Positions 15,449 through 62,684 of a stretch of 64,000 nucleotides of DNA are shown here, one piece after another. The stretch lies in assembly GCA_964589975.1 (NCBI GenBank), contig CAZPVH010000004.1, forward strand, positions 10,469-74,468. Reading direction: 5' to 3'. The translations under genes and the position numbers were made by a program. The stretch's first letter is position 1; each line of letters starts with the position of its first letter. The DNA comes from an uncultured Candidatus Saccharibacteria bacterium. Lineage in GTDB: Bacteria; Patescibacteriota; Minisyncoccia; Phycocordibacterales; CSBR16-119. The notes beneath the pieces were generated by a model. The model saw nothing but the letters and a program-made list of their open reading frames with translations. It was not told where the DNA came from and searched no databases.

Positions 15449-17788
15449 ATGAAAAAGAAATTCGGCATTGCCATAATGTTTTTTTCGATTGTTCTTGGAA
15501 CTGTTTTTGTTCCGGCTTTTTCAGCATATGCTCAGGCCAATGTCGACACATCTGACTACAACGACTATGAAGCAAGGCTTCAGGATTGCGGGGTTCTGGG
15601 AGATTCCAACCTGACAGCCTGTCTTGTCGAGGCTTTGTATTACTTGGTGCTGACGCCTTCGGCTTGGTTCGCCCGCGTGACTGGTGAACTGTTCGATTAT
15701 TTCGTCCAGTATTCCCTCGACACGAATTCATACCGTGGGAATGACAATTTTATTGAACGCGGTTGGTCTATAGTTCGTGATATTGGAAACGTCCTATTTA
15801 TCTTTGCTCTTCTTTATATTGCCATCACGCACATACTCCAAGCTGGTACGTCAGGGACAAAGAAATTTCTAATCAATCTCATCATTGCGGCGCTGCTGAT
15901 TAACTTCTCGCTCTTTTTCTCTCGCGTCATCATAGATGGTGGGAATGTTCTGGCTCGCGCGTTCTATAACAACATAGAGATCCCGAATGACGACAACCTG
16001 CAGTATCACACTATCTCCCAGGGAATCGTGATGCATGTTAATCCGCAGCGCCTGCTTGGCTCCGAACTTTTTACGCCAAAATATTCGAGTGATCCTGATG
16101 TGCCAGAAGGAAAAGTCGATAACGGGTATGCGGCACTAATTCTCGGTATGGCCACAGCAGTCAATATTGTCATGGGGATCACGTTTCTCTCTGTTGCGCT
16201 TCTCTTCGTTGGTCGCGTTGTGGGACTATGGTTCTTGATGATCTTCTCGCCGTTTGCGCTGGCTTCTATTGCTGTTCCAAATTCCGGCAAGATCTTTGGT
16301 CAGTTTAGCTGGAGCGGCTGGATCGATCAGATATTGAAGCTTTCATTCATGGCGCCGGTCTTCCTGTTTTTCCTCTTTCTCCTCATCATGTTCCTCCAAA
16401 TCATTTTCCAGACGAACGTATCTGACGCTGACAAGACGACAGTGCAGTGGATTCTCGATGTTGTCATACCATTTGTCATGGTCATATTTATTCTCAATAA
16501 GGCAAAGAAAGTCGCGGCAGACATGGCTGGGGAAGCGGGCAGCGCGGTCAAGAGCGCGGTTGGTTCTGCCGCAGGGTTTGCTGTCAGCACTGTGGGTCTC
16601 GGTATTGGGGCTACAGCATACATTGGCCGTAATACTGTCGGTAGGCTCGCATCTTCGTCGATAAAACGTCAACAGTTCCAAGAACGAGTTGCTTTGAATA
16701 ATATGAAAGCCAAGGAGTCTGAGCGAAAAGCTGAACAAGCTACGAACGAAAAAGAACGGTTGGCTCATATTCGTGACGCAGAAAAAGCTCGAGCAGCTGC
16801 GGTAAGAAATGCGATGGTTGTCAATCGAATGGATAAATTTAGAAAGGGTAGCTGGGATATCAGGAAGACCGACTGGATGAAGAAACAAGGAGGCCTGGCC
16901 GGAGTTGCTTATGATGTTGGCGCGAAAGCGGGTGGCTGGTCAAAGTCTCTGGCAGGGGAGTTATTTGATTCAAAGACTAAACTTGATATCGGTAAAGCCA
17001 AAGACACGAGTCGTTCGAAATACGAGGAGGATCAGAAAAAGAAGGATCTTGAAAAGGCAAAACTTTATGATGTGCAGGATCGAGGTGATCTTGAAATGAT
17101 CAAATACGAAGCGCGCAAAGGCTTGAATGGCAAGACGGAAGCTATAGAACGCATTGATGAATACATAGAAGAAACTACTAATTCCAAGAAGATTACAGAA
17201 ACGGAAAGAGAGAGACGGCTTAAAGATGCAGAGAATTGGAAGAAGGCGCTGGTCGCTGCTGTCACTGATAAGGATGTTATAGATGTTATATCGGGTAAAA
17301 AAGCTCAAGAAATTGATAATCCTGCATATCAAGATCTGAAAGAATCGCTGGAAGAGAAGCAGACTCGCAGAAATGAACTGCAGGCAATAAAAAAACGCGA
17401 AGGAAGACTCTTGCCTGAAGAGGAAAGGGAGTTGAATGGACTAGATGGAGAAATAGCGGCAACTAATTTGGAATTGAAGAAAACGAAACAAAAGATAGCT
17501 GACCCTGACAACCCTGGTTATTCTGGCGTTGAAGATCACGCGAAAACAATAGCGGGACAAGCAAGAGACGGCTACGCCACCATTGTTGAGAATAAAAATA
17601 TTACCAACGATATATTTAATCTTGGGGTAGGAAAGAGGGAAGCTGCGGCCAGGGCTGATGAAATAAGACGAGGCGTAAAGCCAGATGACTGGAAAGACAA
17701 GTTCAAGAAACTAGCAAAAGAGGTTGGAATGGATGAAAAACCAAAAGATGAACCAAAGTCTGATGATGGAGGAGGTGATAAAAAATAA
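15449..17788 (+). CDS. VirB6/TrbL-like polytopic membrane protein with long charged coiled-coil C-terminus
   Basis: Signal peptide, at least 5 TM helices in the middle third, a Gly/Ala-rich segment, then about 350 aa of K/E-rich coiled coil. Confidence 0.5.
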   Translation: MKKKFGIAIMFFSIVLGTVFVPAFSAYAQANVDTSDYNDYEARLQDCGVLGDSNLTACLVEALYYLVLTPSAWFARVTGELFDYFVQYSLDTNSYRGNDNFIERGWSIVRDIGNVLFIFALLYIAITHILQAGTSGTKKFLINLIIAALLINFSLFFSRVIIDGGNVLARAFYNNIEIPNDDNLQYHTISQGIVMHVNPQRLLGSELFTPKYSSDPDVPEGKVDNGYAALILGMATAVNIVMGITFLSVALLFVGRVVGLWFLMIFSPFALASIAVPNSGKIFGQFSWSGWIDQILKLSFMAPVFLFFLFLLIMFLQIIFQTNVSDADKTTVQWILDVVIPFVMVIFILNKAKKVAADMAGEAGSAVKSAVGSAAGFAVSTVGLGIGATAYIGRNTVGRLASSSIKRQQFQERVALNNMKAKESERKAEQATNEKERLAHIRDAEKARAAAVRNAMVVNRMDKFRKGSWDIRKTDWMKKQGGLAGVAYDVGAKAGGWSKSLAGELFDSKTKLDIGKAKDTSRSKYEEDQKKKDLEKAKLYDVQDRGDLEMIKYEARKGLNGKTEAIERIDEYIEETTNSKKITETERERRLKDAENWKKALVAAVTDKDVIDVISGKKAQEIDNPAYQDLKESLEEKQTRRNELQAIKKREGRLLPEEERELNGLDGEIAATNLELKKTKQKIADPDNPGYSGVEDHAKTIAGQARDGYATIVENKNITNDIFNLGVGKREAAARADEIRRGVKPDDWKDKFKKLAKEVGMDEKPKDEPKSDDGGGDKK

Positions 17789-19999: not shown

Positions 20000-22072
20000 A
20001 TGGGACTTCTAGATCTCCTCTCGGGGAAAAAACCAAAGAATCCGAAGAAAGAAATCCTGCCGGTATTGCCGGAAGAGATTTATCAGGCTGCGACTTTGGA
20101 GCTTCAGGATATTTTGGCGCCGTCGGCTCTTAAAATATCGCCGAAGGCCCTGAATCTCGGCGACAAAATCGCCCGAACGTATTTCGTCATTTCATACCCA
20201 AGGTTCCTATCAGACAATTGGTTCACTCCAATCATAAACCTCGACAAGATCTTCGATATTGCGATCCACATCCATCCCTTGGATACGAACACCATTCTCC
20301 GAAAATTTCAAAAGAAAGTGGCTGAGGTTCAGAGTCAGGTTAATGTTAGAGAATCAAAAGGCCTTGTGCGTGATCCGGTTCTCGATACGGCGTATCAGGA
20401 TCTTGAAGCTCTTCGTGACTCTTTGCAACAGGCTCAAGACAAGATGTTCGACGTTGGACTCTACATCACCATTTACGCGGATTCCATGCCGGAGCTTTCG
20501 AAGATTGAGAATGAAATCAAGTCGATCCTGGAAGCCAAGCTTGTCTATATCAAGCCAGCGCTATTTCAGCAGGATGTTGGTTTCAATAGCGTGGCGCCGC
20601 TTGCGACAGACTTCTTGGCTGTTCATCAGAAGATGAATACCGAGCCTCTTTCATCCATCTTTCCATTCGTCTCTTTCGATCTTTCGTCCGACAAGGGAAT
20701 TCTTTACGGCATAAATCGTCACAACTCTTCTCTGGTTATTTTCGACCGCTTTTCGCTCGAAAACTATAACTCGGTCACGTTTGCCAAGTCCGGTTCGGGT
20801 AAATCATATTCAACCAAACTAGAGATTCTCCGAACGCTCATGTTCGACGCGGAAGTCATCGTGATCGACCCCGAGAGGGAATACGAATATCTCTCTGAGG
20901 CCATTGGTGGCCGGTATTTCAATATTTCGCTCTCGTCCGAACACCACATCAACCCTTTTGATTTGCCTATTCCGACCGCCGATGAGACGCCGGAAGACGT
21001 TCTTCGCGCCAACACTATCCAGCTGGTTGGAATGTTTCGTATCATGCTCGGGGGCCTCACTCCGGAGGAAGACGCGATTATCGACAAGGCTGTGACAGAG
21101 ACCTACGCTCTAAAAGACATCACGTCAGATTCGGATTTTGCAAACATAGAGCCGCCTCTCCTTTCTGATTTCGAAATGGTTCTCGGTGGAATTGAAGGCT
21201 CAGACTCAATCATGACTCGGCTAGCCAAATACACGAAGGGTTCCTGGAAAAATTTCATTAACCAGCCGACAAACGTTGATATTAACAAGCGTTTTATCGT
21301 TTTCTCTGTTCGCGACATGGAAGACGATTTGAAGCCGGTTGCGATGTATATCGTCACGCACTTTATCTGGAACGCCGTCAGGAAGAATCTCAAAAAGCGC
21401 CTGCTTATCGTTGATGAGGCCTGGTGGATGATGAAGAGCGAAGATACTGCTTCCTTCCTTTACAGTATCGCCAAGCGAGGACGAAAATACTTCCTCGGCC
21501 TCTCAACCATCACTCAGGACGTGAATGACTTCGTGGAGAGCCAGTACGGCATGGCTATTGTCACGAACTCTTCGATGCAGCTACTCCTCAAGCAGTCCAC
21601 GAGCTCGGCCGACGCTCTCCAAAAAGTCTTTAACCTGACGGACGAGGAAAAATATCTCCTGCTCGAATCGGAAGTCGGCGAGGGCATCTTCTTTGCGGGC
21701 TTGAAGCATGTTGCCATAAAGGTCATTGCCTCATACACCGAAGATCAGATCATTACTTCGGACCCATCCCAGGTTTTGGCGATCAAGAAGGCTAAAGAGC
21801 AATTCCGAGAAGACGAAAAGGAGTTCGTGCGTACGGAAGGCGAACGTTTGGCAGGGGCCATGAATATTGAAGAAAGGCCAGAACCGACGTCATCTCCGGT
21901 CGAAGAATCGCCGACTAGACCCGCACAAGTTGTGGCTGAGCCAGAAAATCCAATTCCTCCCGCAAAGTCTACGGGGCCGAGGCCTCAGACAGAAACAGAG
22001 AATCTGGCCGAAGAGAGCGAGGGGCTGTCTGACGAGATTGATGATTTGGAGAAGATGTTTAAAGAATATTAG
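20000..22072 (+). CDS. virB4: VirB4/TrbE-family type IV secretion ATPase (ATPase domain)
   Basis: Walker A FAKSGSGKS, Walker B LLIVDEAWWMM, conserved VirB4 C-terminal motifs; acidic C-terminal tail. Confidence 0.85.
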   Translation: MGLLDLLSGKKPKNPKKEILPVLPEEIYQAATLELQDILAPSALKISPKALNLGDKIARTYFVISYPRFLSDNWFTPIINLDKIFDIAIHIHPLDTNTILRKFQKKVAEVQSQVNVRESKGLVRDPVLDTAYQDLEALRDSLQQAQDKMFDVGLYITIYADSMPELSKIENEIKSILEAKLVYIKPALFQQDVGFNSVAPLATDFLAVHQKMNTEPLSSIFPFVSFDLSSDKGILYGINRHNSSLVIFDRFSLENYNSVTFAKSGSGKSYSTKLEILRTLMFDAEVIVIDPEREYEYLSEAIGGRYFNISLSSEHHINPFDLPIPTADETPEDVLRANTIQLVGMFRIMLGGLTPEEDAIIDKAVTETYALKDITSDSDFANIEPPLLSDFEMVLGGIEGSDSIMTRLAKYTKGSWKNFINQPTNVDINKRFIVFSVRDMEDDLKPVAMYIVTHFIWNAVRKNLKKRLLIVDEAWWMMKSEDTASFLYSIAKRGRKYFLGLSTITQDVNDFVESQYGMAIVTNSSMQLLLKQSTSSADALQKVFNLTDEEKYLLLESEVGEGIFFAGLKHVAIKVIASYTEDQIITSDPSQVLAIKKAKEQFREDEKEFVRTEGERLAGAMNIEERPEPTSSPVEESPTRPAQVVAEPENPIPPAKSTGPRPQTETENLAEESEGLSDEIDDLEKMFKEY

Positions 22073-22075
22073 GAA

Positions 22076-22245
22076 GCTCCGCAGAATGCTTATTTAGGAA
22101 TCCTCCGAGATGCGCGCCCTCCATCCCTCGTAGCCCTCGGAATGGAGAAAACTGGCGCGCCCCCTCACGAAAAAGCTCCTAAAAGGGAGCTTTTTCTGCG
22201 GGTTCGTTCTCGGATTCCTAAATAAGCACTCTGCTCCGCGGAGAG
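22076..22245. repeat. MITE-like palindromic intergenic element (family 1, long copy)
   Basis: 21-bp TIR AGAATGCTTATTTAGGAATCC / GGATTCCTAAATAAGCACTCT with nested GC-rich hairpins. Internal CTGCGGGTTCGTTCTCGGATTCC is conserved with the copy at about 43.8 kb. Flanked by direct GCTCCGC on both sides. Confidence 0.5.
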
Positions 22246-22314
22246 CGGAGAGGTCTCAATAGTTTTCCTACTAGCAGCTTATAACTTCGGACTCGGTTTT
22301 GATATAATATTCCC

Positions 22315-30754: not shown

Positions 30755-33727
30755 ATGGCAATGAAAAAACTTTCAGATGAATTCGTGCTTTCGGTCGGGA
30801 TGCTCCTTACGGCGTTTTTGATTTTTCAAGCAGCTATTATCCCCGGGATGTACAACAAAGATCAAACAGCTGCAGTTTTTACATCTAAGAAAGATTCGTT
30901 TGAAATCAGTCCTTCCAAGTCAAACCCAAAAGTATTTAGTTTTGAATATAAATTTGAAACTTTAAAATCTGGCAAAGAAGCTTACTTTGATATACCGATT
31001 AGGAGGTTTGATGACAAAAGAACTTCTCTTGGCGCGGACAATGAGATTTTTGGCAACATAAGAGACGCATGGAACTATCCTGTCAGAGAAAATGCGTTCA
31101 TGAATGCTCGTGGTGGGGGAGAAAAAAGAGGCGGAGATGACCGCTCTGATGAAGATCCAGACGTTCTTGGGCAAGTGAACTGTCGAGCAAATACTGATAT
31201 TGATGGCTATTTTAAAGCTTATTTTGAGGATGTGGCGCTGGGGAATGGTGTCGGTTACGCGGATCAGATTTTTGGAGAGGCTAGGCGAAACGAAGTCTGT
31301 CAGGTTCTACAGGATATCTCAGAACTCATCAATCTTGATGAGACGGACGTAACTCCTGATATTATATTCATGGCAGACCCTGGAAATATTCCGCCAAATG
31401 CACTGGCAGGAGCTTCATCCTATTTTAACAATGCCTCGATTGGGCCGGACAACGGATTTCTACATCGCCACATCATCTCGGAGGAAGATCCAACGCCGGC
31501 AGACGGAATGTTTGATGCTTATGTTGTCACAAATTTTAATGGTATCAGCTGGGATGTTGATACGGATTTGAATCCTGGCACATATGACATGTATTCCGTC
31601 CTGTATCACGAAATATTACACGCCCTTGGTTTCAGGGGACTTCTACCTGCTGTTATAACTAATTCAGGTTCTACGTTCCATCACGATACATTTGACAGCT
31701 TCTCATTCAAGGATGATTCTTTAGCGGATCAGTTCATTGATCCGAGTGACTTTAGTCTTGATGTATTTAACGGAGCCCCATCGCCTTGGTTTGTTACAAA
31801 CGATGTTGTTTATAGGGGCACGAGGAATTTGGACGGGGCAGTTCCTGACGGCATCAGGCCTATTTATAGCCCGATTGGGTGGCAGCAGGGCTCGTCTCTG
31901 TCACACTTTGATATGGCGAGAGCGAATGGCGAGGTCTACGTTATGCATCCATCAATTGGCACCAATACCGAGCGTTCGATTCACGAGCATGAAAAGGAGG
32001 TTTTATGCCACCTAGGCTATGTGGTAGAGGGGGTGAGTGGCTGCGAAGACGCGACGCCTTGGGCCGAAAATGATGTCGCGGCCCTACAGACTGGAAGCGC
32101 GATTTGCATTGAACCGCTTTTAAATGATTTTTCTCTTGAAAATGGGACTGTCCGCCTCAATGAGGTTATTCCTATAGATATTCAAGCAGGGGATGTTATT
32201 GCGTACCATAGTACTGTTAACTGCACAGGTGCGCCGCTCCCGGATGCTGATTGGGCCAGGACCATATTATTTGAATCAACAAGCAATGATAGCGTAAGAC
32301 TTCTGGCTTATAGGGATAGAGATACTGCCTCGGATAGGTTGTCGAATCAGGCAATTATCAAGATTGTGGGAGATTGCAGCAATGATCCAGATGAATATGT
32401 CTGCAATGGAGATTTCGAGATGACAACTGCCCCAAATGACGCATTCATTTCCTGTCCGAACGGCTGGGACCCCTTCATTTCCGCGACTACTTACTGGTGT
32501 AACGCATACGACGATGGCGCCTATGTTCTTTCGGCAAATCAGCAGATGGACATAGTTGTTCCAGAGAACGATGATTATATTGCAGATGTTAATCCTTTGC
32601 CTTGGGCCTTCTCTAACAAGCTTCGTCAGCCACTCGTTGCCGGGGAAGATTACATTTTGTCTTTCGATATGTGGGGCCACATGGATTATATACCTCCGGC
32701 GCTCATAATCGGTTTAAATATGGAGCCATTGGTCGGCCACACCGCTGAAACATGGTATGCCGACGCGGAGTCTTTTCCCGATCAGACTATACCGGTAACC
32801 CAATTGGGAGAGCCGATTTCTCAAACCATCCTAAATGTCTGGTGGGATCATTACGAAATTCCATTCACGGCGAATGACAACTATGAATCTCTTATTTTTG
32901 GATCAGATATATACAAATTATTCCTAGACAATATATCTATCAAGCGAGCAGATATTTTTGAAGAAGGCGGATTAAATACAGTTCAGGGCAAGGTTTATTA
33001 TGATCTCAATTCAAACGGTCAGCTAGAGACAGGCGAGAGCGGGTTGAGCGGTATAACAGTTGGAATATTTCCGCTTGGTTCAACAATACCGCTTGCCACC
33101 ACAACGACAGAAGATGGTGTAAATCTCGGTGAATACGTGTTTGAAAATATGCCCGACAATGTATATAGAATGGTCCTCATGGATGAATCTGTTTTTCCAT
33201 CTGTTACCGAACCAGCGTCTAATAGCTTATTGCCGGGGTACAACCATGCAGTGCATACGTATATCGTCGATGGCGAGACGTCCGAAGGTAATGATTTTGG
33301 TGTCACGCTCGAGGTTGGTCAAATGCCGAATATTCATCTAAAGAAAGGGTTGGCGGATTCCTCGCTCTCTCTTATTGATCGCAATATTACATGGCAGATT
33401 GAGGCTACAAATACGGGAGAAATCGCTGCTCATAACGTTAATATTTCAGACCCTATTCCACTCGGACTTATATACTATAGCCACGTTACACCATCTCCAA
33501 ACATTTATAGCCCAGATACCCATATCTGGAATCTCCCGGTCGTTCAGTCGGGCCAGACGATCGTTCTCCAGATCACCATGAAAGTTCCGCTAGGAACTTG
33601 CGGCAAAAAAGACAATACGGCCAACCTGGTATCTCTAAATGAAGTCGATAGCGATCCAGCTGACAATGTCGCATCGGCGACAATCAAGCTTCGACCGTGC
33701 GGAAATCAAATTGAATCAGTGAAGTAG
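30755..33727 (+). CDS. large secreted protein with HExxH zinc-metallopeptidase-like motif, CnaB/SdrD-type and DUF11 repeat domains
   Basis: Signal peptide, YSVLYHEILHALGF, a CnaB-like segment (VQGKVYYDLNSNGQLETGESGLSGITVG) and a DUF11-like C-terminus. The true start is probably the ATG at 30761 (TGaTAAAAT-N6-ATG). Confidence 0.6.
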   Translation: MAMKKLSDEFVLSVGMLLTAFLIFQAAIIPGMYNKDQTAAVFTSKKDSFEISPSKSNPKVFSFEYKFETLKSGKEAYFDIPIRRFDDKRTSLGADNEIFGNIRDAWNYPVRENAFMNARGGGEKRGGDDRSDEDPDVLGQVNCRANTDIDGYFKAYFEDVALGNGVGYADQIFGEARRNEVCQVLQDISELINLDETDVTPDIIFMADPGNIPPNALAGASSYFNNASIGPDNGFLHRHIISEEDPTPADGMFDAYVVTNFNGISWDVDTDLNPGTYDMYSVLYHEILHALGFRGLLPAVITNSGSTFHHDTFDSFSFKDDSLADQFIDPSDFSLDVFNGAPSPWFVTNDVVYRGTRNLDGAVPDGIRPIYSPIGWQQGSSLSHFDMARANGEVYVMHPSIGTNTERSIHEHEKEVLCHLGYVVEGVSGCEDATPWAENDVAALQTGSAICIEPLLNDFSLENGTVRLNEVIPIDIQAGDVIAYHSTVNCTGAPLPDADWARTILFESTSNDSVRLLAYRDRDTASDRLSNQAIIKIVGDCSNDPDEYVCNGDFEMTTAPNDAFISCPNGWDPFISATTYWCNAYDDGAYVLSANQQMDIVVPENDDYIADVNPLPWAFSNKLRQPLVAGEDYILSFDMWGHMDYIPPALIIGLNMEPLVGHTAETWYADAESFPDQTIPVTQLGEPISQTILNVWWDHYEIPFTANDNYESLIFGSDIYKLFLDNISIKRADIFEEGGLNTVQGKVYYDLNSNGQLETGESGLSGITVGIFPLGSTIPLATTTTEDGVNLGEYVFENMPDNVYRMVLMDESVFPSVTEPASNSLLPGYNHAVHTYIVDGETSEGNDFGVTLEVGQMPNIHLKKGLADSSLSLIDRNITWQIEATNTGEIAAHNVNISDPIPLGLIYYSHVTPSPNIYSPDTHIWNLPVVQSGQTIVLQITMKVPLGTCGKKDNTANLVSLNEVDSDPADNVASATIKLRPCGNQIESVK

Positions 33728-33828
33728 ATTTTGTTGGTTATCCACAAAGATTATATATAGAATCACTCGGTACGCGGCTCAGGTGTTATGATAGTACTAT
33801 CAATTAGAACTAAGCTTGTTTTTTATTT

Positions 33829-34131
33829 ATGAATTCGCAAACGCAAATCAAAAAGAAGTCTCAATGGTTTCTGTATGCCCTTCTTGTAGTTTTGGTAATC
33901 ATCGTACTTATCATAATGATTGGTAAAAATAAGCAAGAAAAGATTTCGGATGATCGTCGCGATCAAATAATAGAGCTTCTGAGGGCTAGAAACACTGCAA
34001 ACTCAAACCTGACACCGGAACAGCAAGCCCAGGTTGTAGATAAACTTCGCGCAGGCAATAAAACCAACAAGAGCAATCTTAATGAGGAGCAAATGCAGCA
34101 GGTCATGGACTCGCTCCGATCGAGGCAATAA
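33829..34131 (+). CDS. small TM protein with internal duplicated LRARN/LRAGN motif
   Basis: 100 aa with an N-terminal TM helix and repeated Q-rich segments. Confidence 0.45.
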   Translation: MNSQTQIKKKSQWFLYALLVVLVIIVLIIMIGKNKQEKISDDRRDQIIELLRARNTANSNLTPEQQAQVVDKLRAGNKTNKSNLNEEQMQQVMDSLRSRQ

Positions 34132-34143
34132 TCTCATGACTTT

Positions 34144-36468
34144 ATGGTCCGTTTCCTTTTAAAAAGCAAGACCAGGAAAATCAGAACCTCCATTATCGCG
34201 GGGGCTCTGATTGTTTTCGGAGCTATTTTCTTTGGTTTCGGTGGCGCGCAGGCGGCTCCAAACTTTGATCCGATTCCTGCAGATTCTGAGCCAGGAGATA
34301 TTTCCGGATTTGCTTGGATGGGAACTGATATTAATAATCCGGGACAGAGTGAGGGAGGAGGGGGGTGGCTTAATATGAGTTGCAAAACTTCTTATTGCTA
34401 CGACTGGAATGGCAACGGCTCTTTAGAAGATAATGAAAAGTGGGGCGTCACCATAAATTTGAGCCACACGGCTTCTGCTGGAAGTTTCTCTGGCTATGCC
34501 TGGAGTTCAAATTACGGATGGCTGGCATTTAGGGGTCCAGGAATATCGAGATGCTGGACACAGCATCCAGGTATAACCACCGATGGAATGGTTCAGGCAG
34601 ACATATGGGGCGGTGGAAGTTTGATCGATGTTACGGGGTGGGCTCAATTCGTGGCTGGGGGAGATAATGATCTTGATGGTTGGGACGGTTGCGTTGCTTT
34701 TAGTGGTGCGAATCACGGCGTAAAGCTCAACATGGATACTGGGGATCTCGAGGGTTGGGCCTGGGGTGGTCCGGTTGTGGGTTGGATCAGTTTCCAGACG
34801 CCAGAATGTCCAGAGTGCAATACCAGCGTTAACCTAGGGGGAACTCCGCAGCTCACTTTCTGGGCAAGCCCAACAGTACTTACTCCCGGCATAACCAGCT
34901 CGACTCTCCATTGGACGTCAAATACTGTAAACGGGAATTACGTGGCTACGTGTACGGATTATAATAATACTAGTAATTACACCCATTGGAGAAGTGTCGG
35001 CATGCCGACCGTCACTAATGTAGGAGAAATCAGTACAAGTGAGGGCAATCTGCCTAATGGGACCCATCCGATAAATAACGTGACCCAGACTACTACGTAT
35101 AGTCTTACATGCCAAGACAGGTTCGGCGAGGATTTGCCGACCCAGTATGTGACGGTGACTGTACAAGTACCTGGCTGTACTGATCCATTGGCTCCAAACT
35201 ACAATCCGCTCGCGAACATTGATGATGGTAGTTGCGGAGGCGCCGGTACGCCAACTGTTACACTAAACGTTATTACAAATGGTTCTCCTGATAATACATT
35301 GCCAGAAGGCAGTAGTAACGCTACCGACTATCAAGTGAGTCCGCGATGGGTATTCACTAATAGAAACCAATTTGCTTCGGCATACTGTACTCAGTCATTC
35401 AAAGACGAGAACGGTGTGACACAGAACTTGAATGCATGGACCGGATCACAATTATCTAACCCAACGCTTGTTGGAAACAATCCATTCGATACTTCAGGTA
35501 ACAGCTGGGTTACAACGACAAATATCGCAACGTACGCGGATGACGCGCCGGTCGGTTCAGTGTTCACCTTTACTATCTCTTGTGTGGATCTTGGTGGGGT
35601 TACTCATTCTGCGAGTGATACGGTGATAATTGTTGCCGGACCAATCGATCCGCCAACACCGTCACTTGCGCTCTTCGCTGAGAATCCGACCATTATTATT
35701 GGTAGCGGTAATTATGACGAAAAGCTTTGGTGGTCATCTAACAATCCTAGCGAGCTTGAATCCTGTACAGGCGACTTCGTTCGAACTTCTCCTTCAGCGC
35801 AGAACCCGAACTTGGTTGGTTGGGAAACAGGTAATCTGCCTGAGCCGAACGTTAACCAAAATCCTGGCCACACCGCCCATCAAACTGCATTCAACACTTT
35901 GGCCGCAGGCGTAACATCTCCAGCGACATATAGATTTACCCTCACTTGTGACGATGATTTGCATCCTGGTGAAGAAGTTAGCGCTTCAACCAACATACAG
36001 TTTATTGATACTCCGGTCTCGACCGAGCCACCATTCGTTTCGCTATCTATTAAGACGCCTGATACGAACCCAGTCGGAGGCGGATCAGAGCAGATTCCAG
36101 CTGGTGGTATTGACCCATTCACCCTCAAGTGGTCAGCTCTCAATGTTCACGGATGTAAGGCAGCATCCGATCAGTACTTGCCAGGCGGCACATCTCCTGT
36201 AAGCAGCAATGCGAACTGGGACGGTCAACCTGTTCCTGACGATGGTGATCCTACAGACTCATCGATGGTAGAGAAAACCTTCCCTATACTGCCTCCGGAT
36301 AACATGAACACGATTTTCTTCATCACTGACTGTGTTCCTGATGATCCGACAACATTTGGAAGTGCGCCGTTACCTGATGTGTGGGTATGTATGTCGATCA
36401 CCGGACAAGCATTCCAGTCATGTAGTCCGTCTGGACCAGGTCGACCACCGGCTTACATAGAAATCTAA
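34144..36468 (+). CDS. large secreted hypothetical protein (774 aa)
   Basis: Signal peptide; Trp/Gly/Thr-rich predicted beta-rich domains; no catalytic motif recognised. Confidence 0.6.
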   Translation: MVRFLLKSKTRKIRTSIIAGALIVFGAIFFGFGGAQAAPNFDPIPADSEPGDISGFAWMGTDINNPGQSEGGGGWLNMSCKTSYCYDWNGNGSLEDNEKWGVTINLSHTASAGSFSGYAWSSNYGWLAFRGPGISRCWTQHPGITTDGMVQADIWGGGSLIDVTGWAQFVAGGDNDLDGWDGCVAFSGANHGVKLNMDTGDLEGWAWGGPVVGWISFQTPECPECNTSVNLGGTPQLTFWASPTVLTPGITSSTLHWTSNTVNGNYVATCTDYNNTSNYTHWRSVGMPTVTNVGEISTSEGNLPNGTHPINNVTQTTTYSLTCQDRFGEDLPTQYVTVTVQVPGCTDPLAPNYNPLANIDDGSCGGAGTPTVTLNVITNGSPDNTLPEGSSNATDYQVSPRWVFTNRNQFASAYCTQSFKDENGVTQNLNAWTGSQLSNPTLVGNNPFDTSGNSWVTTTNIATYADDAPVGSVFTFTISCVDLGGVTHSASDTVIIVAGPIDPPTPSLALFAENPTIIIGSGNYDEKLWWSSNNPSELESCTGDFVRTSPSAQNPNLVGWETGNLPEPNVNQNPGHTAHQTAFNTLAAGVTSPATYRFTLTCDDDLHPGEEVSASTNIQFIDTPVSTEPPFVSLSIKTPDTNPVGGGSEQIPAGGIDPFTLKWSALNVHGCKAASDQYLPGGTSPVSSNANWDGQPVPDDGDPTDSSMVEKTFPILPPDNMNTIFFITDCVPDDPTTFGSAPLPDVWVCMSITGQAFQSCSPSGPGRPPAYIEI

Positions 36469-36618
36469 AAGAAAAATCAAAAACTTCGCATTAGCGAAGT
36501 TTTTGATTGAGTGGGTTTTCCACAAACTGTATGACAAATGTCAACAGGGAAGAGCCATGAAGTGATATTATAGAAGAAGCTTTAGAAATTATTAGTCGCA
36601 TTATTTTTATTATTTGTT

Positions 36619-39600
36619 ATGTCATCTTTTAGAACCAAAGTCGCCGCCGCAGTTTTCACAATCGTCGCTCTCACATTCGGGCCATACGCGGCTCTCGCGC
36701 AGAACTCCTGGACTCCGCCGACACAGGCTCCGACCGGCGGCAACGTTCCGGCTCCGGTAAACGTCGGAATATCCGACCAGACCAAGCTTGGACCTTTGTC
36801 GATAAAGGGCGCTTTCAAGAGCCTCTCCACTTCTACGCTCTCTGGTGATGTTGTCACTCAGCCTGACACCAGTGGCTTTGGCTTCATGGCAAACTTTCTT
36901 GAGACATTCTTCTATAACAATGTCTATGTGGGAGATGCAACTCCTTTCAATGGTTCCGGTAATGAAATCCCGGTAGACTTCAATGTCTACGGTAAGTTCA
37001 AATATCAAACAGCAGATAATGCCGGCAATCCTGAGCCAGTAAATCCTGGTGACATTCTCGTGGCCAATGACGAGGGCTACACCGAATGGGCTGACCCATC
37101 AACTATTTCAGGTGGCGGTTCAGACCCAAGATTGCCAAATGGTACATCAAAAGGCGACACATTATATTGGGATCCGACCACTAGTAAATGGGTGGTAGCA
37201 TCAAATGTTCAAATAAGTCCAAATGTTTTTGAGTCTCTTCGAGCTACTGGCACAAATGGAGGACTTCATGTTTTGAATGACGGCTCAGTGGTTTCTGATT
37301 ACCGAGCTTCTTTTACCGGCGGACTCAAAGTAACTCTTCCGAGCGGCGCTCCGACACCTGGACAGGTTCTTGAAACATCAGACAACCAAGGAAACATAGC
37401 TTGGGGAGATGGACTACCTCCGGGAGGAAATAATGGTGATGTTTTGGTGTGGAACAGTACTACTAATCAATGGGAATCGACGACTTTCAATGTAACTGGA
37501 AGTCTTCCTCCGGGTAACTCAACCGGCCAGTCTCTTCGATGGACCGGTACTGCATGGCAGGTGACGGATGCTGTTAAGACTCCGAGCGATACAACTGTCC
37601 AGATTGGCGCCAACGCAAGCAACACCGCAGTCATGATTGGAAACACGGTCAACACGTCGTTCATGCAGATCAATTCCAACAGTTTAAATTTAAACCCTGA
37701 CGCTATCAGTATCCCTCTAAACGGCACAGCCGCTGCTGGTAAGGTTCTGGCCTCAAGTAATAACACTGGTGCCCTGGCTTGGACAGATGTCTCAAGTCTT
37801 CCCGGGGGACTTCCCGCAGGAACAACTGGTCAGACCCTTTGGCACAACGGCACATCATGGCAACCTACAAGCAAACTTATTTGGAACGGCGCAGGAGAAG
37901 TCTTAAAGTTTGAAGGATCGGGTCTTCTTTTGAAGGGGGAGGGCGGCGCACTCGACCCAGCTGAGGGACGATTCTTGCAGTCTAAAAATGATCAGGGGGA
38001 AGTAGTATGGAATAAATACTTTGTTTATAAAGACATACCTTATGTAGATGATGGTGTAGACAAGCATATCGACTCTATCGAGATTCTTGAAAGCAATGGT
38101 GATGATACCAGGACTTCTGGACTGGCTAACTATGGCGAATATACTTACCTTGCGAATCGTTTAGAAGTCGATGGTCTTACGTTCCTAAATAACGACACAG
38201 AGGTTAACGGCGAGTCTATATTAAATGGCAATACCACAATTTCTACTAGTGGAGACCTGTGGCTTGAGGGAATCGACGCCCTGCCACCGACACAGATGGA
38301 TCTTAATGGCAATCCTGTATCGATGAATTACAACCTAGAGTCTCTTTGTATAAATAGACAAGATTTCAAGGTCGTCCTCTGTGATCCAGGCGCGGGCAAA
38401 CCAAAGCCTCAAGTTATTGGAACATTTACAGAGACTTTTGGTCCTGGTTCTGGCACAGGCGTATCATTCCCAAGACCTAATCAGGCCCCAGGTCCTGTTG
38501 AGGTGAAAATGTGTGCTGCTGGCGGTGGTGGTGGTGGTGGTGGACGTGGATTTGAGATTGATCTTAATGAATATGGTCACGGTGGTGGTGGTGGTGGTGG
38601 TGGTGGTAAGGGGCAATGTTCGACAACTACAATAAATCCTGGTGATGGAGAAGAAATCACATGGACATCGATAGGCGCAGGTGGTTCTGGAGGAAGTCCG
38701 GGAAATATTGATGTGGTCTATGGTTACGGCGAGCCGTATCAGGTAAATGCTAATACTGCAGCTACAAGCGGTCAGCCTGGAGGAGGTACTCAGGTTTATT
38801 TTGAAGGAAATCTATTGGCTAGTCTAATGGGCGGATCAGGTGGTTATGCGGGCGGAAATGCTAGTACTAGCGGACAAGGTATCGGTGGAAGTGGTGGTTC
38901 GAGTGATTTAACAGTTGCTACTGTTTGGTGGCATAAGGGTGCCAACGGTCAAATAGACTCAGAGGGTGGCAATGGTGGTCATGGTGGTAAAGGAGAAGAT
39001 AATGCTTCTGGGCAGGGTGGTGAGGGTGGTGGTTCTGGTCAATTTCAAAGTGGCCAACAATTTGGTGGAAATGGAATGCAGGGAGCTGCTGGTTATGGCG
39101 GCGGTGGCGGTGGCGGCGCATCTGGAAAGTGGTACGATTACGCCTATACTTTAAGTAATCAGAATGATGATGATAACGCTTACGTTAGTCATGGAGGCTG
39201 GGGCGGAAATGGCGGAAGTGGTTATGTTGCTATTACCTACAACATATATCTTCCAGATCCGGAACCTATTACTGAACAGCTCTTTACAGAATCAGGCACG
39301 TTTAACATAAATGTTATTCCGACAAATGTTGTTGATGTTACTATCGAAGCTTGGGGAGGCGGCGGTGGCGGAGGACTTGCTCAAAACGCTGTTGGTGGTC
39401 TGTCCGGAAGCCACAATAGATACGGCGGCGGCGGAGGTTCTGGAGGCTATGCGAAGACGATTATTCCGAGAGCAAACCTCACAAATACTCTGAATGTAAT
39501 CGTTGGCGGAGGAGGAGCAGCCTCAGCTAATGGTGGACCAAGTAGTGTTGTCGGGGGCGGTCAGATTGTTACGGCATACGGTGGTGAGGGCGGAAAAGAC

Positions 39601-39861
39601 TCGATCCAGAACGCAGCATGTACAGCCGGAGGTAATGGAGGTACGAATAACTACGGACAGGATCAGGCGGTAGACGGAGGCGACGGAGGAGCTTGTGGAG
39701 TTCTCCAGGTCAACCCACCTGTTGTCGGGGCTGGCCAGGGTGGAGTCCAGTCTGTCGGTGGTTATGGCACAGGAGGCAACGGAGCTAAACTGTTCGGTTC
39801 AGGAGCTAGTCCTGTAGCGGCCCAGAGTGGTCAGGCCGGACGAGTTCTCATCTCTTGGTAA
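36619..39861 (+). CDS. giant secreted Gly-rich repeat protein (1080 aa)
   Basis: Signal peptide; N-terminal half has at least 6 degenerate G(D/Q)xL-x(8–12)-W repeats of about 38 aa; C-terminal half has poly-Gly runs and GGxGG repeats. Confidence 0.65.
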   Translation: MSSFRTKVAAAVFTIVALTFGPYAALAQNSWTPPTQAPTGGNVPAPVNVGISDQTKLGPLSIKGAFKSLSTSTLSGDVVTQPDTSGFGFMANFLETFFYNNVYVGDATPFNGSGNEIPVDFNVYGKFKYQTADNAGNPEPVNPGDILVANDEGYTEWADPSTISGGGSDPRLPNGTSKGDTLYWDPTTSKWVVASNVQISPNVFESLRATGTNGGLHVLNDGSVVSDYRASFTGGLKVTLPSGAPTPGQVLETSDNQGNIAWGDGLPPGGNNGDVLVWNSTTNQWESTTFNVTGSLPPGNSTGQSLRWTGTAWQVTDAVKTPSDTTVQIGANASNTAVMIGNTVNTSFMQINSNSLNLNPDAISIPLNGTAAAGKVLASSNNTGALAWTDVSSLPGGLPAGTTGQTLWHNGTSWQPTSKLIWNGAGEVLKFEGSGLLLKGEGGALDPAEGRFLQSKNDQGEVVWNKYFVYKDIPYVDDGVDKHIDSIEILESNGDDTRTSGLANYGEYTYLANRLEVDGLTFLNNDTEVNGESILNGNTTISTSGDLWLEGIDALPPTQMDLNGNPVSMNYNLESLCINRQDFKVVLCDPGAGKPKPQVIGTFTETFGPGSGTGVSFPRPNQAPGPVEVKMCAAGGGGGGGGRGFEIDLNEYGHGGGGGGGGGKGQCSTTTINPGDGEEITWTSIGAGGSGGSPGNIDVVYGYGEPYQVNANTAATSGQPGGGTQVYFEGNLLASLMGGSGGYAGGNASTSGQGIGGSGGSSDLTVATVWWHKGANGQIDSEGGNGGHGGKGEDNASGQGGEGGGSGQFQSGQQFGGNGMQGAAGYGGGGGGGASGKWYDYAYTLSNQNDDDNAYVSHGGWGGNGGSGYVAITYNIYLPDPEPITEQLFTESGTFNINVIPTNVVDVTIEAWGGGGGGGLAQNAVGGLSGSHNRYGGGGGSGGYAKTIIPRANLTNTLNVIVGGGGAASANGGPSSVVGGGQIVTAYGGEGGKDSIQNAACTAGGNGGTNNYGQDQAVDGGDGGACGVLQVNPPVVGAGQGGVQSVGGYGTGGNGAKLFGSGASPVAAQSGQAGRVLISW
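38521..38612 (+). repeat. (GGT)n microsatellites inside the Gly-rich gene
   Basis: Two runs of 7–8 GGT units encoding Gly8–Gly9. Confidence 0.7.
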
Positions 39862-41892: not shown

Positions 41893-42630
41893 ATGAAAAA
41901 GAAGAATCTATTAACAGAACGTCGGATGCTCATTGGTCTCATCGCCCTCTTGTTTGTGATGGGCTTCATCCATACCATGGGAATTCTAACACTTACGAAC
42001 AAACTTGGTAGCCGCGTAGACTTATCGACGCAGACAGCCCAGGTCGCCACACTTAGTATCTGTTTGCAAATAACACCGGCATACAATATTACTACTACTG
42101 GAGAAATTCTCGGTTGGGATGGTGGCCCTGGTGTAGCTCAGCATATGTATTGGAACATTAAAAACCTTTGTTCTACCAATATTAGAATAATTAATGTTGC
42201 TAATTTGAACATATCAGAGCCAAATTTGTTCACTGTTCAAGCAAGAAATCAAAATGGCTCAATAGTTCCAATTTTAGGCTCAGGTTTATCAACCTACGGA
42301 ATAGGTGCTTATTATGAGTTTGTTAACTGTGCAACATGTAGTAACACATGGGTTCCTTCAACAGTACCAAATTCTAATTATCAAATATCTACCTCTGTTA
42401 TTCCTCCACAAGCGACGCGTTTAATTGATTTGTCTGCGGTTTACTCTAGGGGCGGCTCAGGTTCAGATGCTCCGATAAGAATTGCTCCTAAAGCTATAAA
42501 GTGGGTCATGGAAAGTTCTGTAGCTGATAACAATATTTCTGCAACTGATATATTGACCACTCAAGTTGGTACAACGAATGCTAATTATTGGGCACCGGAT
42601 TTCATCGATGCTGATAATTATGTTAACTAG
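41893..42630 (+). CDS. secreted hypothetical protein
   Basis: 245 aa with a signal peptide/TM helix; Thr/Asn-rich. Confidence 0.55.
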   Translation: MKKKNLLTERRMLIGLIALLFVMGFIHTMGILTLTNKLGSRVDLSTQTAQVATLSICLQITPAYNITTTGEILGWDGGPGVAQHMYWNIKNLCSTNIRIINVANLNISEPNLFTVQARNQNGSIVPILGSGLSTYGIGAYYEFVNCATCSNTWVPSTVPNSNYQISTSVIPPQATRLIDLSAVYSRGGSGSDAPIRIAPKAIKWVMESSVADNNISATDILTTQVGTTNANYWAPDFIDADNYVN

Positions 42631-42697: not shown

Positions 42698-43711
42698 TTA
42701 GCGTTTTGTGATCGTGCGGGCTGTTCCGTCCTGGAACCGGACAACATAGTTGCCAGGGATGAAAGACGTTCCGTCGATTGCTCCGCTGTTGTCAGTTTGT
42801 CCGGTCCAGACAACGCGTCCATTCATGTCGGTTACAACTGCCGATTTCGAGACGGTTGTGACCCGGCACTTGTCGAAGAATGGATTCGGGTATGACTGGA
42901 AGCTGTTGGTGACAACTTCTTCCGTGCTCGTGCTCATGTCGCCTGCCAGGAAGCAGTCGGACTCAGTGGTTACAATGACCGCGGAGAACGATGTGCCAAA
43001 GCCGATGTCAGCGAGACCGTTCTCACTATGGAGCAGTCGAAGCTCGATCTTGAGATCGGTGGGGAGGCCATCGTAGATGAAGCTGAAGCTGTAGTGGTCC
43101 GATGTGTTCCAGTACTGCTCTTGCTGTTGCGATTCCAGGACTTCGAGCGTTGCGCAGTTGATCAGTCGGGCTTCCACGAAGGAGCGTTTCTGTCCGCAGT
43201 CATTGTAGACCGTGGATGCGATATTCCAATCGAGAGCGTGAACCTGACAGCAAACCTGTCCAACGATGGCAGTCGGTGCTTCCTCGAAGTCGAAGATGAC
43301 CGGAGTATTGTAGACCTGAGCCCAGGTTTCTGAGCCGTTGGTATTAGTGCCAGCGCACCAGACGTATTGACCGTTTTCGATCGTGAAGAGATCGAGAACT
43401 ACCGAAGCGAACTCGTAGCTCGCATTTGGCACCATCGGTACGTATGTCACCGACATGGTGTCCAGTCCCGGGGAGTCGATGAAGTAGTTGGTCGTGGTCG
43501 GCTGACCATTGATGGTCGCTACGACAACTTTCGGGTTGTTATCCGACCATTCGGTGCTGAAGACGACGAGAACTTCACCGGCTTTGTAGCAGATAGGGCC
43601 GATGTTTTGGCCGGCTTGGCACTGCCAGTCGAGTATGTCGACCGAAGAGGCAAGGGAAGTTCCCACGCTAACACTGGCGCAAAACGCTAAAGTGACGAAG
43701 AGCTTGTTCAT
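42698..43711 (-). CDS. secreted protein with T9SS-type (Por_Secre_tail-like) C-terminal sorting domain
   Basis: Signal peptide; C-terminal 70 aa SYPNPFFDKCRVTT...VTDMNGRVVWTG...GNYVVRFQDGTARTITKR match the type A T9SS CTD consensus (YPNPF, DxxGRxV, GxYxV, K-rich end). Confidence 0.55.
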   Translation of the reverse strand: MNKLFVTLAFCASVSVGTSLASSVDILDWQCQAGQNIGPICYKAGEVLVVFSTEWSDNNPKVVVATINGQPTTTNYFIDSPGLDTMSVTYVPMVPNASYEFASVVLDLFTIENGQYVWCAGTNTNGSETWAQVYNTPVIFDFEEAPTAIVGQVCCQVHALDWNIASTVYNDCGQKRSFVEARLINCATLEVLESQQQEQYWNTSDHYSFSFIYDGLPTDLKIELRLLHSENGLADIGFGTSFSAVIVTTESDCFLAGDMSTSTEEVVTNSFQSYPNPFFDKCRVTTVSKSAVVTDMNGRVVWTGQTDNSGAIDGTSFIPGNYVVRFQDGTARTITKR

Positions 43712-43769
43712 GGGTTATGGTTGTTTTTCTGAATATTACCATGAAAGCCTATAAAAGTCAAATTGGGCT

Positions 43770-43930
43770 CCCCAGAATGTGTTATTTGGGATTCTGCGAG
43801 ACGCCCGCCAGCCTTCCTCCGAGCACTCGGAAGGCTCATGAAGCACTAGTAGGCGGGCGCCCTCACGGCCTGTGCGCAGGCCTGCGGGTTCGTTCTCGAA
43901 TCCCAAAAAACACATTCTGCTTCGCTGGAA
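43770..43930. repeat. MITE-like palindromic intergenic element (family 1, long copy)
   Basis: 20-bp TIR GAATGTGTTATTTGGGATTC / GAATCCCAAAAAACACATTC; internal CTGCGGGTTCGTTCTCGAATCCC; about 80% identity over both ends to the copy at about 22.1 kb. Confidence 0.5.
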
Positions 43931-43939
43931 GGGGGGAGA

Positions 43940-44344
43940 TTAGAGATTAGCCTTTATTTTTTCAGCAAATTCAGACATTTCACCGGTTGAGTCATATGAT
44001 ACTTCCGGGCGAGTTGATATGTGCACCTCGCTTTCGTTGTAGCGTGGGATGAGATGGATATGGAAATGTGGTACCTCATTACCAACAACGCCAATTTGGA
44101 CATAATCGCATGGTATTCCTGAACGCATCGCATTTATAATCTCCTTGGCTTTGATGAAAATTTCTCCTACGAGCTCGTCGGGGGCTTCATGAATCCATGT
44201 GTAATGTGCCTTTGGTATTAATAGGGTGTGACCTTTTGTAACTGGGTGAATGTCCAAAAATGCCAAGAATTTTTCATCCTCGTAAACCTTTGTCGCAGGG
44301 ATCTCCCCATCGATTATCTTCTCGAATATCGTTTTCATAGTCAC
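43940..44344 (-). CDS. HIT-family (histidine triad) nucleotide hydrolase
   Basis: HxHxHxx motif HFHIHLIP; 134 aa. Confidence 0.85.
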   Translation of the reverse strand: MTMKTIFEKIIDGEIPATKVYEDEKFLAFLDIHPVTKGHTLLIPKAHYTWIHEAPDELVGEIFIKAKEIINAMRSGIPCDYVQIGVVGNEVPHFHIHLIPRYNESEVHISTRPEVSYDSTGEMSEFAEKIKANL

Positions 44345-61619: not shown

Positions 61620-62225
61620 ATGGACGAAGTAAAACCAACAACATCAACAGCATCAGAAGGGCAGAAGCCGGCGTCTTCGTATCGAGGAGGCGGAAAGTCT
61701 TTTGACCGTGGAGGTTCGCGAGGCGGACGACGCCCAGTCGAGCGCCGCGAGAAGCCTGAATTCGACCAGAAAATTCTCTCAATCCGACGTGTTACCCGTG
61801 TTGTTTCCGGCGGACGACGATTCTCATTCTCCGTCACTATGCTTGTTGGAGACAAGAAAGGCCGAGTGGGTCTTGGACTTGGGAAATCTGCGGACACAAC
61901 TCTTGCTATTAATAAGGCTGTGGCATCTGGCAAGAAGCACATGATCACGGTCCGAACGACTCCTGATATGTCTATCTCTCACTCAGTCGAAGGAAAGTTC
62001 AAGGCTTCTCGCGTCATGCTCATGCCAAACAAAGGCAAGGGTCTCGTTGTCGGCGGTGCTATCCGCGACATCATCGTCCTCGCCGGGCTCAAGAACATTA
62101 CAGGCAAGATCTTCTCCCGCTCAAAGACTCATCTCAATAACGCCAAGGCCGCAATGAATGCCCTTCAAGATCTCAAAGCGCCAAAGAAAGTAAAGGTCGC
62201 TGCGCCGGCTGAAGTAGCAGAGTAA
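61620..62225 (+). CDS. rpsE: 30S ribosomal protein S5
   Basis: S5 dsRBD and C-terminal domain (RVTRVVSGGRRFSF, GLGLGKS) with an R/G-rich N-terminal extension. Confidence 0.95.
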   Translation: MDEVKPTTSTASEGQKPASSYRGGGKSFDRGGSRGGRRPVERREKPEFDQKILSIRRVTRVVSGGRRFSFSVTMLVGDKKGRVGLGLGKSADTTLAINKAVASGKKHMITVRTTPDMSISHSVEGKFKASRVMLMPNKGKGLVVGGAIRDIIVLAGLKNITGKIFSRSKTHLNNAKAAMNALQDLKAPKKVKVAAPAEVAE

Positions 62226-62234
62226 TAAAATTTT

Positions 62235-62684
62235 ATGCAAACTAATAATCTAGTTCGAAAAACGAAGAACAAGAAGACAAAGCTCATCGGCCGAGGCGGC
62301 AAGAGGGGCAAGACTTCTGGACGCGGAACAAAAGGACAGTGGGCTCACGGCAGCCACGGCGTCCGTCCTGAGATGCGAGACATCGTCAAGAAGTTCCCGA
62401 AACTCCGCGGACACGGAAAGAACCGCGGACGCACGGTTAATTCTTCTGTCGTTCGCGAGACTCCAATCAATCTTTCCACGCTTGAAGAGAACTTCAAAGC
62501 AGGGGACAAGGTCACCTTGGACGCGCTACTTGAGAAGAAGCTCGTGAATAAATCCGGTGGCAAGAATCCGTCAGTAAAGATCTTGGCCGGTGGTGAAATA
62601 TCTAAGAAGCTTTCAGTCATCGGCTTCAGCATGTCGGCCGCAGCGCGAGCCGCTATCGAAAAAGCCGGCGGCGAGGTAAAATAA
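62235..62684 (+). CDS. rplO: 50S ribosomal protein L15
   Basis: GRGGKRGKTSGRGTKGQ...; directly follows rpsE with no L30 gene between them. Confidence 0.93.
   Translation: MQTNNLVRKTKNKKTKLIGRGGKRGKTSGRGTKGQWAHGSHGVRPEMRDIVKKFPKLRGHGKNRGRTVNSSVVRETPINLSTLEENFKAGDKVTLDALLEKKLVNKSGGKNPSVKILAGGEISKKLSVIGFSMSAAARAAIEKAGGEVK

Follow-up and report, generated by a model that had tools for sequence, protein, structure and literature searches.

Bacteroidota that carry a type IX secretion system (T9SS) generally encode many tail-bearing cargo proteins per genome, and the type A C-terminal domain (CTD) of such cargo is treated as a diagnostic T9SS tag and used for secretome prediction. CPR bacteria live as obligate symbionts, and most of the proteins by which they contact their hosts are unknown; to our knowledge, neither an outer membrane nor a T9SS is known from them. 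T9SS genes have been reported in Bacteroidota and in some other phyla of the FCB group only (PMC11285876). The conserved motifs of the type A domain set its fold, not its contacts with the translocon (Lauber et al., PMC10994853), and a near-invariant lysine of the last CTD strand contacts PorV in T9SS cargo (PMC10994853, PMC11285876). The locus described here encodes a secreted protein that ends in a domain of this type and lies in a CPR genome.

Architecture of the protein and its C-terminal domain

The window (the whole stretch of 64,000 nucleotides that was analyzed) contains a gene, hereafter the target, whose product is laid out as a signal peptide, two beta-sandwich domains, a linker and a T9SS-type CTD:

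42698..43711, minus strand: target gene, coding for a 337-aa secreted protein (ORF listing, ATG start); member of a family of about 15 homologs, under purifying selection (omega about 0.1 against the ortholog with 75% identity)
43646..43711, minus strand: Sec-type signal peptide, aa 1-22, MNKLFVTLAFCASVSVGTSLA|SS, read from the sequence (pLDDT below 50 at residues 1-19)
43310..43645, minus strand: D1, predicted FnIII/Ig-like beta-sandwich, aa ~23-134, with no family assignment (AlphaFold model)
42944..43294, minus strand: D2, predicted beta-sandwich, aa ~140-256, ending in the conserved motif C-F-x-[AV]-G-D-x-S-T (AlphaFold model and alignments A3 and A4)
42893..42943, minus strand: acidic disordered linker, aa ~257-273, pI ~4 (pLDDT below 50 at residues 260-278)
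42701..42892, minus strand: T9SS type A-like CTD, aa 274-337, pI 9.6 (TIGR04183, PF18962 and solved-CTD profile matches, invariant residues, model)

Hydrophobic N-terminal leaders were read heuristically in 10 of the 12 aligned family members, the remaining two being truncated at the N-terminus; by the same heuristic, the Sec leader typical of T9SS cargo was found in the target and in all full-length members. Neither a lipobox nor an LPXTG motif occurred in the target sequence. Residues D161 and W162 were almost invariant across the 12 members of alignment A3, and C172, C186 and C253 were invariant among the closer members (six-member alignment A4). The mature protein is acidic; together with the signal peptide and the cysteines conserved among closer members, this fits a probable extracellular location.

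The AlphaFold model, built with a 12-sequence alignment as input (pLDDT 79.5), displayed two FnIII/Ig-like sandwiches, a disordered linker and a tail sandwich, without any enzyme fold, and its structure-level matches were generic sandwich folds only. For all 12 members, searches of the N-terminal 270 residues gave no match to a Pfam or NCBIfam family (fn3, Big, Cadherin-like etc. included).

The first-pass annotation had described a type A T9SS CTD in the last roughly 70 residues of a secreted protein, and the profile searches agreed. The HMM check proposed there succeeded for TIGR04183 (NCBIfam, T9SS type A sorting domain), which matched aa 274-336 of 337, i.e., the extreme C-terminus, with 32.7 bits against a cut-off of 23 (E 5.5e-8), but fell just short for PF18962 (Pfam), with 25.9 bits against a gathering score of 27 (E 1.3e-5). 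Both models matched all 12 aligned members, at best with 6.8e-11 and 8.6e-8, respectively. The family profile also matched solved CTDs of T9SS cargo, that of a lipase (7pzj) at 4.6e-10 and further 5jvk, 8glk_D and 8glj_D, the latter two being isolated 75-residue CTD chains from F. johnsoniae translocon complexes (PMC10994853). A weak Pfam match to SdrD_B overlapped the CTD match.

The target displayed the motifs YPNPF, D-x-x-G-R-x-V and P-G-x-Y and a lysine near the C-terminus (K336), its last residues reading ...SYPNPFFDKCRVTTVSKSAVVTDMNGRVVWTGQTDNSGAIDGTSFIPGNYVVRFQDGTARTITKR, the same as quoted in the first-pass annotation. Among family members, P277, G298 and G320 of the tail were invariant and P275 and Y322 nearly so, all of them located in the motifs that define the fold; one member (P0009) had lost the YPNPF segment. 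Residues 280-337 were predicted to form a small beta-sandwich (pLDDT 82-89) with six strands resolved (residues 281-336), compared to seven in solved CTDs, and with low confidence for the YPNPF segment. The last-strand position of K336 was occupied by K in 8 of the 12 members and by R in the other 4; its equivalence to the PorV-contacting lysine was judged by profile alignment, not by superposition. Since the tail retains this lysine, it might, as far as the sequence alone can tell, still be competent for a T9SS. Judged from the profile matches, the invariant residues and the predicted fold, the tail and the T9SS type A sorting domain are genuinely homologous, the match being well beyond chance. 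Apart from the target and its homologs, no tail-bearing ORF was found in ~74 kb of this genome or among the related loci fetched, which argues against the tail serving these cells as a general sorting tag.

Genome, locus and family

The window encodes YifB, an M23 peptidase, PcrA, a VirB4 of the Gram-positive CD1110 type, trigger factor, NusA, TIM, PGK, HIT and RecJ, as well as EF-Tu, a ribosomal-protein operon, SecY and several large orphan secreted proteins. The nearest PGK sequences came from Patescibacteria/Saccharibacteria MAGs (one genome per GTDB species), labeled Saccharibacteria, Patescibacteria, Nomurabacteria or Paceibacterota, with a top identity of 65%, and RecJ reached up to 72% identity, in Patescibacteria MAGs as well. 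The best-hit taxonomy recommended at first pass gave the same picture for the flanking genes, TIM, PGK, HIT and RecJ all being closest to genes of CPR MAGs. The absence of an L30 gene, noted at first pass, was confirmed: L15 starts 9 bp after S5, with no uL30 gene in the window. A passage in PMC9297842 describes uL30 loss as a frequent CPR trait. The nearest relatives of PGK and RecJ, the missing L30 and the CD1110-type VirB4 upheld the earlier impression of a non-Bacteroidota genome, and the housekeeping genes flanking the target together with the L30 absence placed the organism outside Bacteroidota and the FCB group.

No T9SS or outer-membrane component was detected among 20 large ORFs of the window (NCBIfam) or in Pfam scans, nor did any appear in about 10 kb of further flanking sequence from the same genome (Logan contigs L033 and L035), for which precomputed Pfam annotation was used. 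Within the resulting ~74 kb of genome inspected, none of SprA/Sov, PorV, PorU, PorK/L/M/N or GldK/L/M/N was found. Most members of the target family carried a Gln at +1 after the signal peptide, and so did many predicted signal peptides in the window. Taking this residue (the Q-rule) as a Bacteroidota signature of the target was rejected, as other secreted proteins of the same CPR genomes share it.

The surroundings of the target comprised the following features:

41893..42630, plus strand: o245, a 245-aa convergent neighbor with an N-terminal membrane anchor and no Pfam or NCBIfam match; beside the target in L001-L003, L022-L030 and L032
42648..42673, no strand assigned: predicted bidirectional intrinsic terminator hairpin with an 11-bp stem, common to the convergent o245 and target (terminator scan, both strands)
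43733..43761, minus strand: putative sigma70-like promoter TTGACT-17-TAATAT (with TG), ending 22 nt before the ATG (consensus scan, pattern match only)
43765..43935, no strand assigned: GC-rich structured repeat between HIT and the target promoter, with 22-nt terminal inverted repeats (43773-43794 and 43898-43919)
43940..44344, minus strand: HIT-family gene upstream of the target, a conserved syntenic neighbor (NCBIfam HinT match)

Homologs of the target were found in nine genomic contexts (L001/L002, L003, L022, L023-25, L026-27, L028, L029/L030, L032 and L031). In eight of them the gene occupied the same slot, convergent with an o245 homolog, downstream of HIT, or both; the exception was L031, a contig too short to place the gene. 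Wherever contigs reached that far, PGK/TIM adjoined the o245 side and RecJ the HIT side. HIT lay next to the target homolog in L022, L023-25 and L028, with two extra genes in between in L029. At least nine sequencing samples independently yielded contigs with the TIM-PGK-o245 / HIT-RecJ arrangement. The gene was absent at this position from the nearest GTDB representatives (L004 and L005, PGK 64-65%), in which RecJ directly follows PGK, so its presence in the clade is patchy. L005 encoded a distant o245 homolog without the target. Across loci, the identity of o245 tracked that of the target, and this co-divergence, the synteny and the membrane anchor make o245 a possible partner of the target.

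The repeat element that had been placed next to the gene at first pass is real, GC-rich and strongly folding: it is some 170 nt long, its predicted fold reaches -88.4 kcal/mol (z = -6.4), and a second copy lies near 22.1 kb (~22099-22260). It had no match in Rfam and none to phage, and the interval containing it aligned to L022 at 83%.

An exhaustive HMMER pass over 1.84 billion representative proteins yielded a family of about 15 homologs of the same architecture, 21-38% identical to the target except for one at 75%. Members P0006-P0013, P0015 and P0017 measured 278-346 aa, two truncated entries included, and were 21-38% identical over their full length; P0018, P0020 and P0023 were more distant. 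The members share a common layout with a leader, about 240 N-terminal residues, the C-F-x-[AV]-G-D-x-S-T motif, a linker and the type A tail. The N-terminal ~270 residues had no homolog outside this CPR family among the 1.84 billion representatives, and the best extra-family matches of the CTD were typical cargo, e.g., GSDH+CBM6+Por_Secre_tail. A word-indexed search returned the target itself and its 75% ortholog, nothing further; a profile search (A3) of the word-indexed set of 5.8 billion proteins returned 3 proteins and no new members, and the 72 stretches matched in a metagenome scan (six-member alignment A4) included no relative. P0014 (899 aa, 8 tandem matches) was rejected as a member, being a repetitive Ig-like repeat protein without CTD motifs. 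Apart from one JGI and one ENA contig, almost all family sequences came from Logan/SRA assemblies. No relevant paper linking T9SS or Por_Secre_tail with CPR/Patescibacteria was found in the literature. As far as can be seen from these searches, the family appears confined to one CPR/Patescibacteria clade.

Sequence evolution and codon usage

Compared across loci with the window genes, PGK was 58-89% identical and the target 23-75%; in the loci where the target had 23-32% identity, PGK retained 58-72%. The fixed slot, along with a PGK far more conserved than the target, indicates vertical inheritance within the CPR clade and a much faster evolution of the target than of its neighbors. Against the 75% ortholog, the N-terminal domains had an omega of 0.05 and the CTD one of 0.25, both rough values given saturated dS, and family-wide mean identity was equal among domains (25-28%).

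The L022 locus displayed a sharp breakpoint. Its HIT protein was 95% identical to that of the window, and its DNA remained 83% identical across window 44339-43675, a stretch that takes in HIT, the intergenic element and the opening ~12 codons of the target. Past this point, DNA similarity was gone, and target and o245 both showed 37% aa identity. Such a boundary suggests that a different target/o245 allele was swapped in.

The target had the highest GC3 (0.675) of 23 window genes and also the largest codon-usage distance. The same anomaly recurred in other lineages: GC3 of the homolog was 0.67 in L023 (0.27-0.30 in neighbors), 0.57 in L028 (0.29-0.35) and 0.56 in L029 (0.24-0.36 for housekeeping neighbors), and NNC was used over NNT at two-fold sites at 0.70-0.81 in five lineages, compared with 0.22-0.58 in neighboring genes. 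In the window, NNC usage rose from housekeeping genes (0.46) through ribosomal proteins (0.59) and EF-Tu (0.73) to the target (0.81), a strong bias that suggests very high expression. At four-fold sites, EF-Tu prefers T, but the target was enriched in both C and G; translational selection alone thus does not account for the bias, and biased gene conversion at a hotspot of recombination could underlie the GC3/NNC excess. The comparison of GC and codon usage suggested at first pass did single out the target as the most deviating gene of the window, but not as a fresh foreign signature, since the deviation recurs in every lineage; codon anomaly was thus dropped as a sign of transfer.

Possible roles of the tail and comparison with known systems

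The explanation we favor, at somewhat better than an even chance, is an abundant, Sec-exported surface or adhesin protein that is diversifying and in which the T9SS-type tail has taken on a new use, in retention or binding. The protein would be exported via Sec, extracellular and non-enzymatic, and would be formed by two FnIII/Ig-like domains, a flexible acidic linker and the C-terminal sandwich. With no T9SS or outer membrane known in CPR and none visible in the ~74 kb inspected here, the tail is most likely not a T9SS export signal; it may be a folded module for cell-surface retention or ligand binding. The gene would be kept between PGK/o245 and HIT/RecJ and passed on vertically, with occasional allele replacement by recombination, and the protein might face the host, phage or the environment. 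The simplest origin of the tail would be one old capture from a bacterium of the FCB group. An ancestor of the clade may have acquired it long ago, either by itself or along with the rest of the gene, probably from such a bacterium. Of the two options left by the first-pass annotation, lateral acquisition or use of the beta-sandwich tail in another context, the evidence thus favors the latter, with a function that can be proposed only tentatively.

Lateral acquisition as a recent event, in which a T9SS cargo gene would have come from a Bacteroidota host or neighbor with its tail as a non-functional passenger, is very improbable. The leading GC3 (0.675) and codon-usage distance of the target among 23 window genes, the typical cargo (GSDH+CBM6+Por_Secre_tail) among the best extra-family CTD matches and the non-universal o245-target-HIT block (PGK being directly followed by RecJ in L004 and L005) would all agree with it. 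It is largely refuted by homologs only 23-38% identical in the same slot of diverged CPR contigs; moreover, the N-terminal region lacks homologs beyond the CPR family among the representatives searched, GC3 and NNC are high across all lineages regardless of genome GC, the gene carries a putative sigma70-like promoter of its own, and the tail shows omega below 1 and invariant fold motifs. A decaying relic, i.e., a tail without a role on a protein working by its two N-terminal domains alone, is doubtful, though less so than a recent transfer. The higher omega of the tail (0.25, against 0.05 for the N-terminal part) in the closest pair and the loss of the YPNPF segment in P0009 point that way, but TIGR04183 and PF18962 still detect the tail in all 12 members despite about 25% pairwise identity, its divergence is no faster than that of the other domains family-wide, P277, G298 and G320 never vary and P275 and Y322 hardly do, and the tail is confidently folded in the model.

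Host-directed mimicry would imply that a CPR episymbiont of a Bacteroidota/FCB host exports a protein bearing the host's own type A sorting domain, which host PorV or PorU/PorZ would bind or anchor, tethering the symbiont or disturbing host secretion. The retention of all fold motifs and of the PorV-contacting lysine, the single tail-bearing ORF in ~74 kb and related loci, and the fast evolution, allele swaps and apparent high expression expected of a host-interface protein are in line with this scenario; it nevertheless appears quite unlikely, as CTD recognition by SprA and PorV normally takes place on the periplasmic side, the lysine is replaced by arginine in a third of the members (though some ordinary cargo has R) and no supporting literature was found. 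That the contig came from, or is chimeric with, a T9SS-bearing Bacteroidota/FCB genome, the gene being ordinary cargo, is hardly credible: the CTD match itself would fit, and so would the frequent Gln at +1 behind predicted signal peptides of the window, reminiscent of the Bacteroidetes Q-rule, whereas TIM, PGK, HIT and RecJ on both flanks are closest to CPR MAGs, the same arrangement occurs in contigs of at least nine sequencing samples, L30 is absent and no T9SS or outer-membrane protein was matched in the ~74 kb scanned. Equally remote is a chance or convergent resemblance, by which a generic Ig-like sandwich would score on CTD profiles. The target's Pfam score under the gathering threshold and the weak overlapping SdrD_B match would be expected in that case, but TIGR04183 is above its cut-off, all 12 members match both models, the family profile reaches solved CTDs at 4.6e-10, and YPNPF, DxxGRxV, PGxY and the C-terminal K are all present in a strictly C-terminal domain.

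Under the favored explanation of a repurposed tail, a domain would have been long retained by a clade outside the known T9SS range, on a seemingly highly expressed, fast-diversifying surface protein, and would evidently be able to serve a role independent of SprA and PorV. The domain family itself was already known; what is new is its context, since the family that carries it is hypervariable, passed on vertically and, it appears, highly expressed, in a lineage from which no T9SS is known. Annotation pipelines using TIGR04183 would presumably label this protein as T9SS cargo, which is misleading for CPR genomes. The target appears to be a good candidate determinant of host or phage interaction and could be used as a strain marker in the clade. 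If mimicry were true, it would represent secretion-signal mimicry across phyla and would indicate Bacteroidota as the host of this CPR clade.

Like T9SS type A cargo (F. johnsoniae RemZ and NucA, P. gingivalis RgpB), the target combines a Sec signal peptide, functional domains and a flexible linker with a basic sandwich tail at the extreme C-terminus, which is ~65-75 residues long and carries YPNPF, DxxGRxV, GxY and the lysine. Unlike T9SS cargo, it is encoded in a CPR genome, outside the reported T9SS range (PMC11285876), with no T9SS component in ~74 kb; unlike cargo of Bacteroidota, it is the sole tail-bearing ORF in the window and related loci, and its N-terminal domains have no relatives in Bacteroidota. 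To tandem FnIII/Ig-like adhesins and S-layer-associated proteins the likeness is at fold level only (3-14% identity), and in contrast to the tandem adhesins the target is small, with three domains and without LPXTG, SLH or another recognized anchor. One pair only (window and L022) displays the allele swap, and neither silent cassettes nor invertible elements were observed, in contrast to the variable surface-protein loci of other bacteria, where alleles are replaced in cassette-like fashion at a fixed chromosomal site. The parallel with such loci is that the target sits in a fixed slot between conserved flanks, and the breakpoint falls just inside the region coding for the signal peptide, separating alleles that are 37% identical from a flanking protein that is 95% identical.

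The target and its convergent neighbour

The gene of the secreted protein with a T9SS type A-like C-terminal domain (the target) is accompanied by a convergent gene, o245, and the HIT gene is located upstream of the target. Loci relevant to this arrangement were as follows:

Window 41893-42630, + strand: o245, an orphan of 245 aa with an N-terminal membrane anchor
L029 2987-4034 (contig of a CPR relative): HIT and the target homolog separated by two additional short genes, of 138 and 194 aa

The target and o245 were convergent in every case and diverged in step. The GC3 of o245 (0.33) was the lowest among the 23 genes tested. A distant o245 homolog (26%) was found downstream of RecJ in L005 (14003-14938), a contig of one of the nearest GTDB representatives, which lacks the target. 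L022 (1-2070), another relative's contig, was close to the window (43675-44339), HIT being 95% identical at the amino acid level and the nucleotide identity amounting to 83% through the intergenic region, while its target and o245 alleles were only 37% identical to those of the window. The breakpoint was sharp and fell about 12 codons inside the target. Judging from these alignments, the pair looks like it underwent a cassette-style replacement in L022. L029 was the most divergent among the syntenic target loci; its two extra genes had no match in Pfam, and one of them displayed a raised GC3 (0.54 vs 0.24 to 0.36 in housekeeping neighbours).

A GC-rich structured repeat and the RNA gene content

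A GC-rich repeat element of about 170 nt, bounded by 22-nt terminal inverted repeats, occurred at the following positions:

Window 43765-43935, + orientation: copy 1, between HIT and the target
Window 22099-22260, + orientation: copy 2, after VirB4
L022, about 436-663: the corresponding region in the relative

The two window copies shared 72% identity and the same orientation (+ strand), and the HIT-to-target interval holding the element was 83% identical between L022 and the window. Its predicted fold was very stable (-88.4 kcal/mol, z = -6.4), and searches against Rfam and phage gave no match. Candidate identities for the element are a structured RNA and a MITE-like repeat. Across the 64-kb window, no Rfam match was obtained at the gathering threshold and no tRNA genes were found. 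In the ribosomal operon, S5 was followed after 9 bp by L15, with no L30 gene in between (window 62225-62235).

Large secreted proteins and their predicted cleavage sites

Several large secreted ORFs with scant or absent family assignment were encoded in three regions:

Window 4612-8775
Window 13080-17788
Window 30755-39861

Those of 1387, 758, 779 and 774 aa had no family assignment, the 990-aa ORF combined a metalloprotease-like region with SdrD_B and DUF11, and the 1080-aa ORF carried a glycine-rich domain. Some of them flanked a CD1110-type VirB4 (window 20000-22072). The products of these ORFs probably belong to the symbiont's cell surface or are associated with a T4SS.

By a crude heuristic count, glutamine directly followed the alanine of the likely signal-peptidase site in many proteins predicted to be secreted, both in this genome and in related CPR genomes, as well as in most target-family members. 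The same crude heuristic pointed to secreted ORFs with this Ala-Gln junction at:

Window: starts 13080, 15449, 22912 and 36619
Related CPR contigs: L004 244; L005 777 and 14003; L007 1241
Further related CPR contigs: L009 16782; L011 16350; L013 18040

This pattern in CPR secreted proteins is reminiscent of the 'Q-rule', reported to be Bacteroidetes-specific (PMC5837995).
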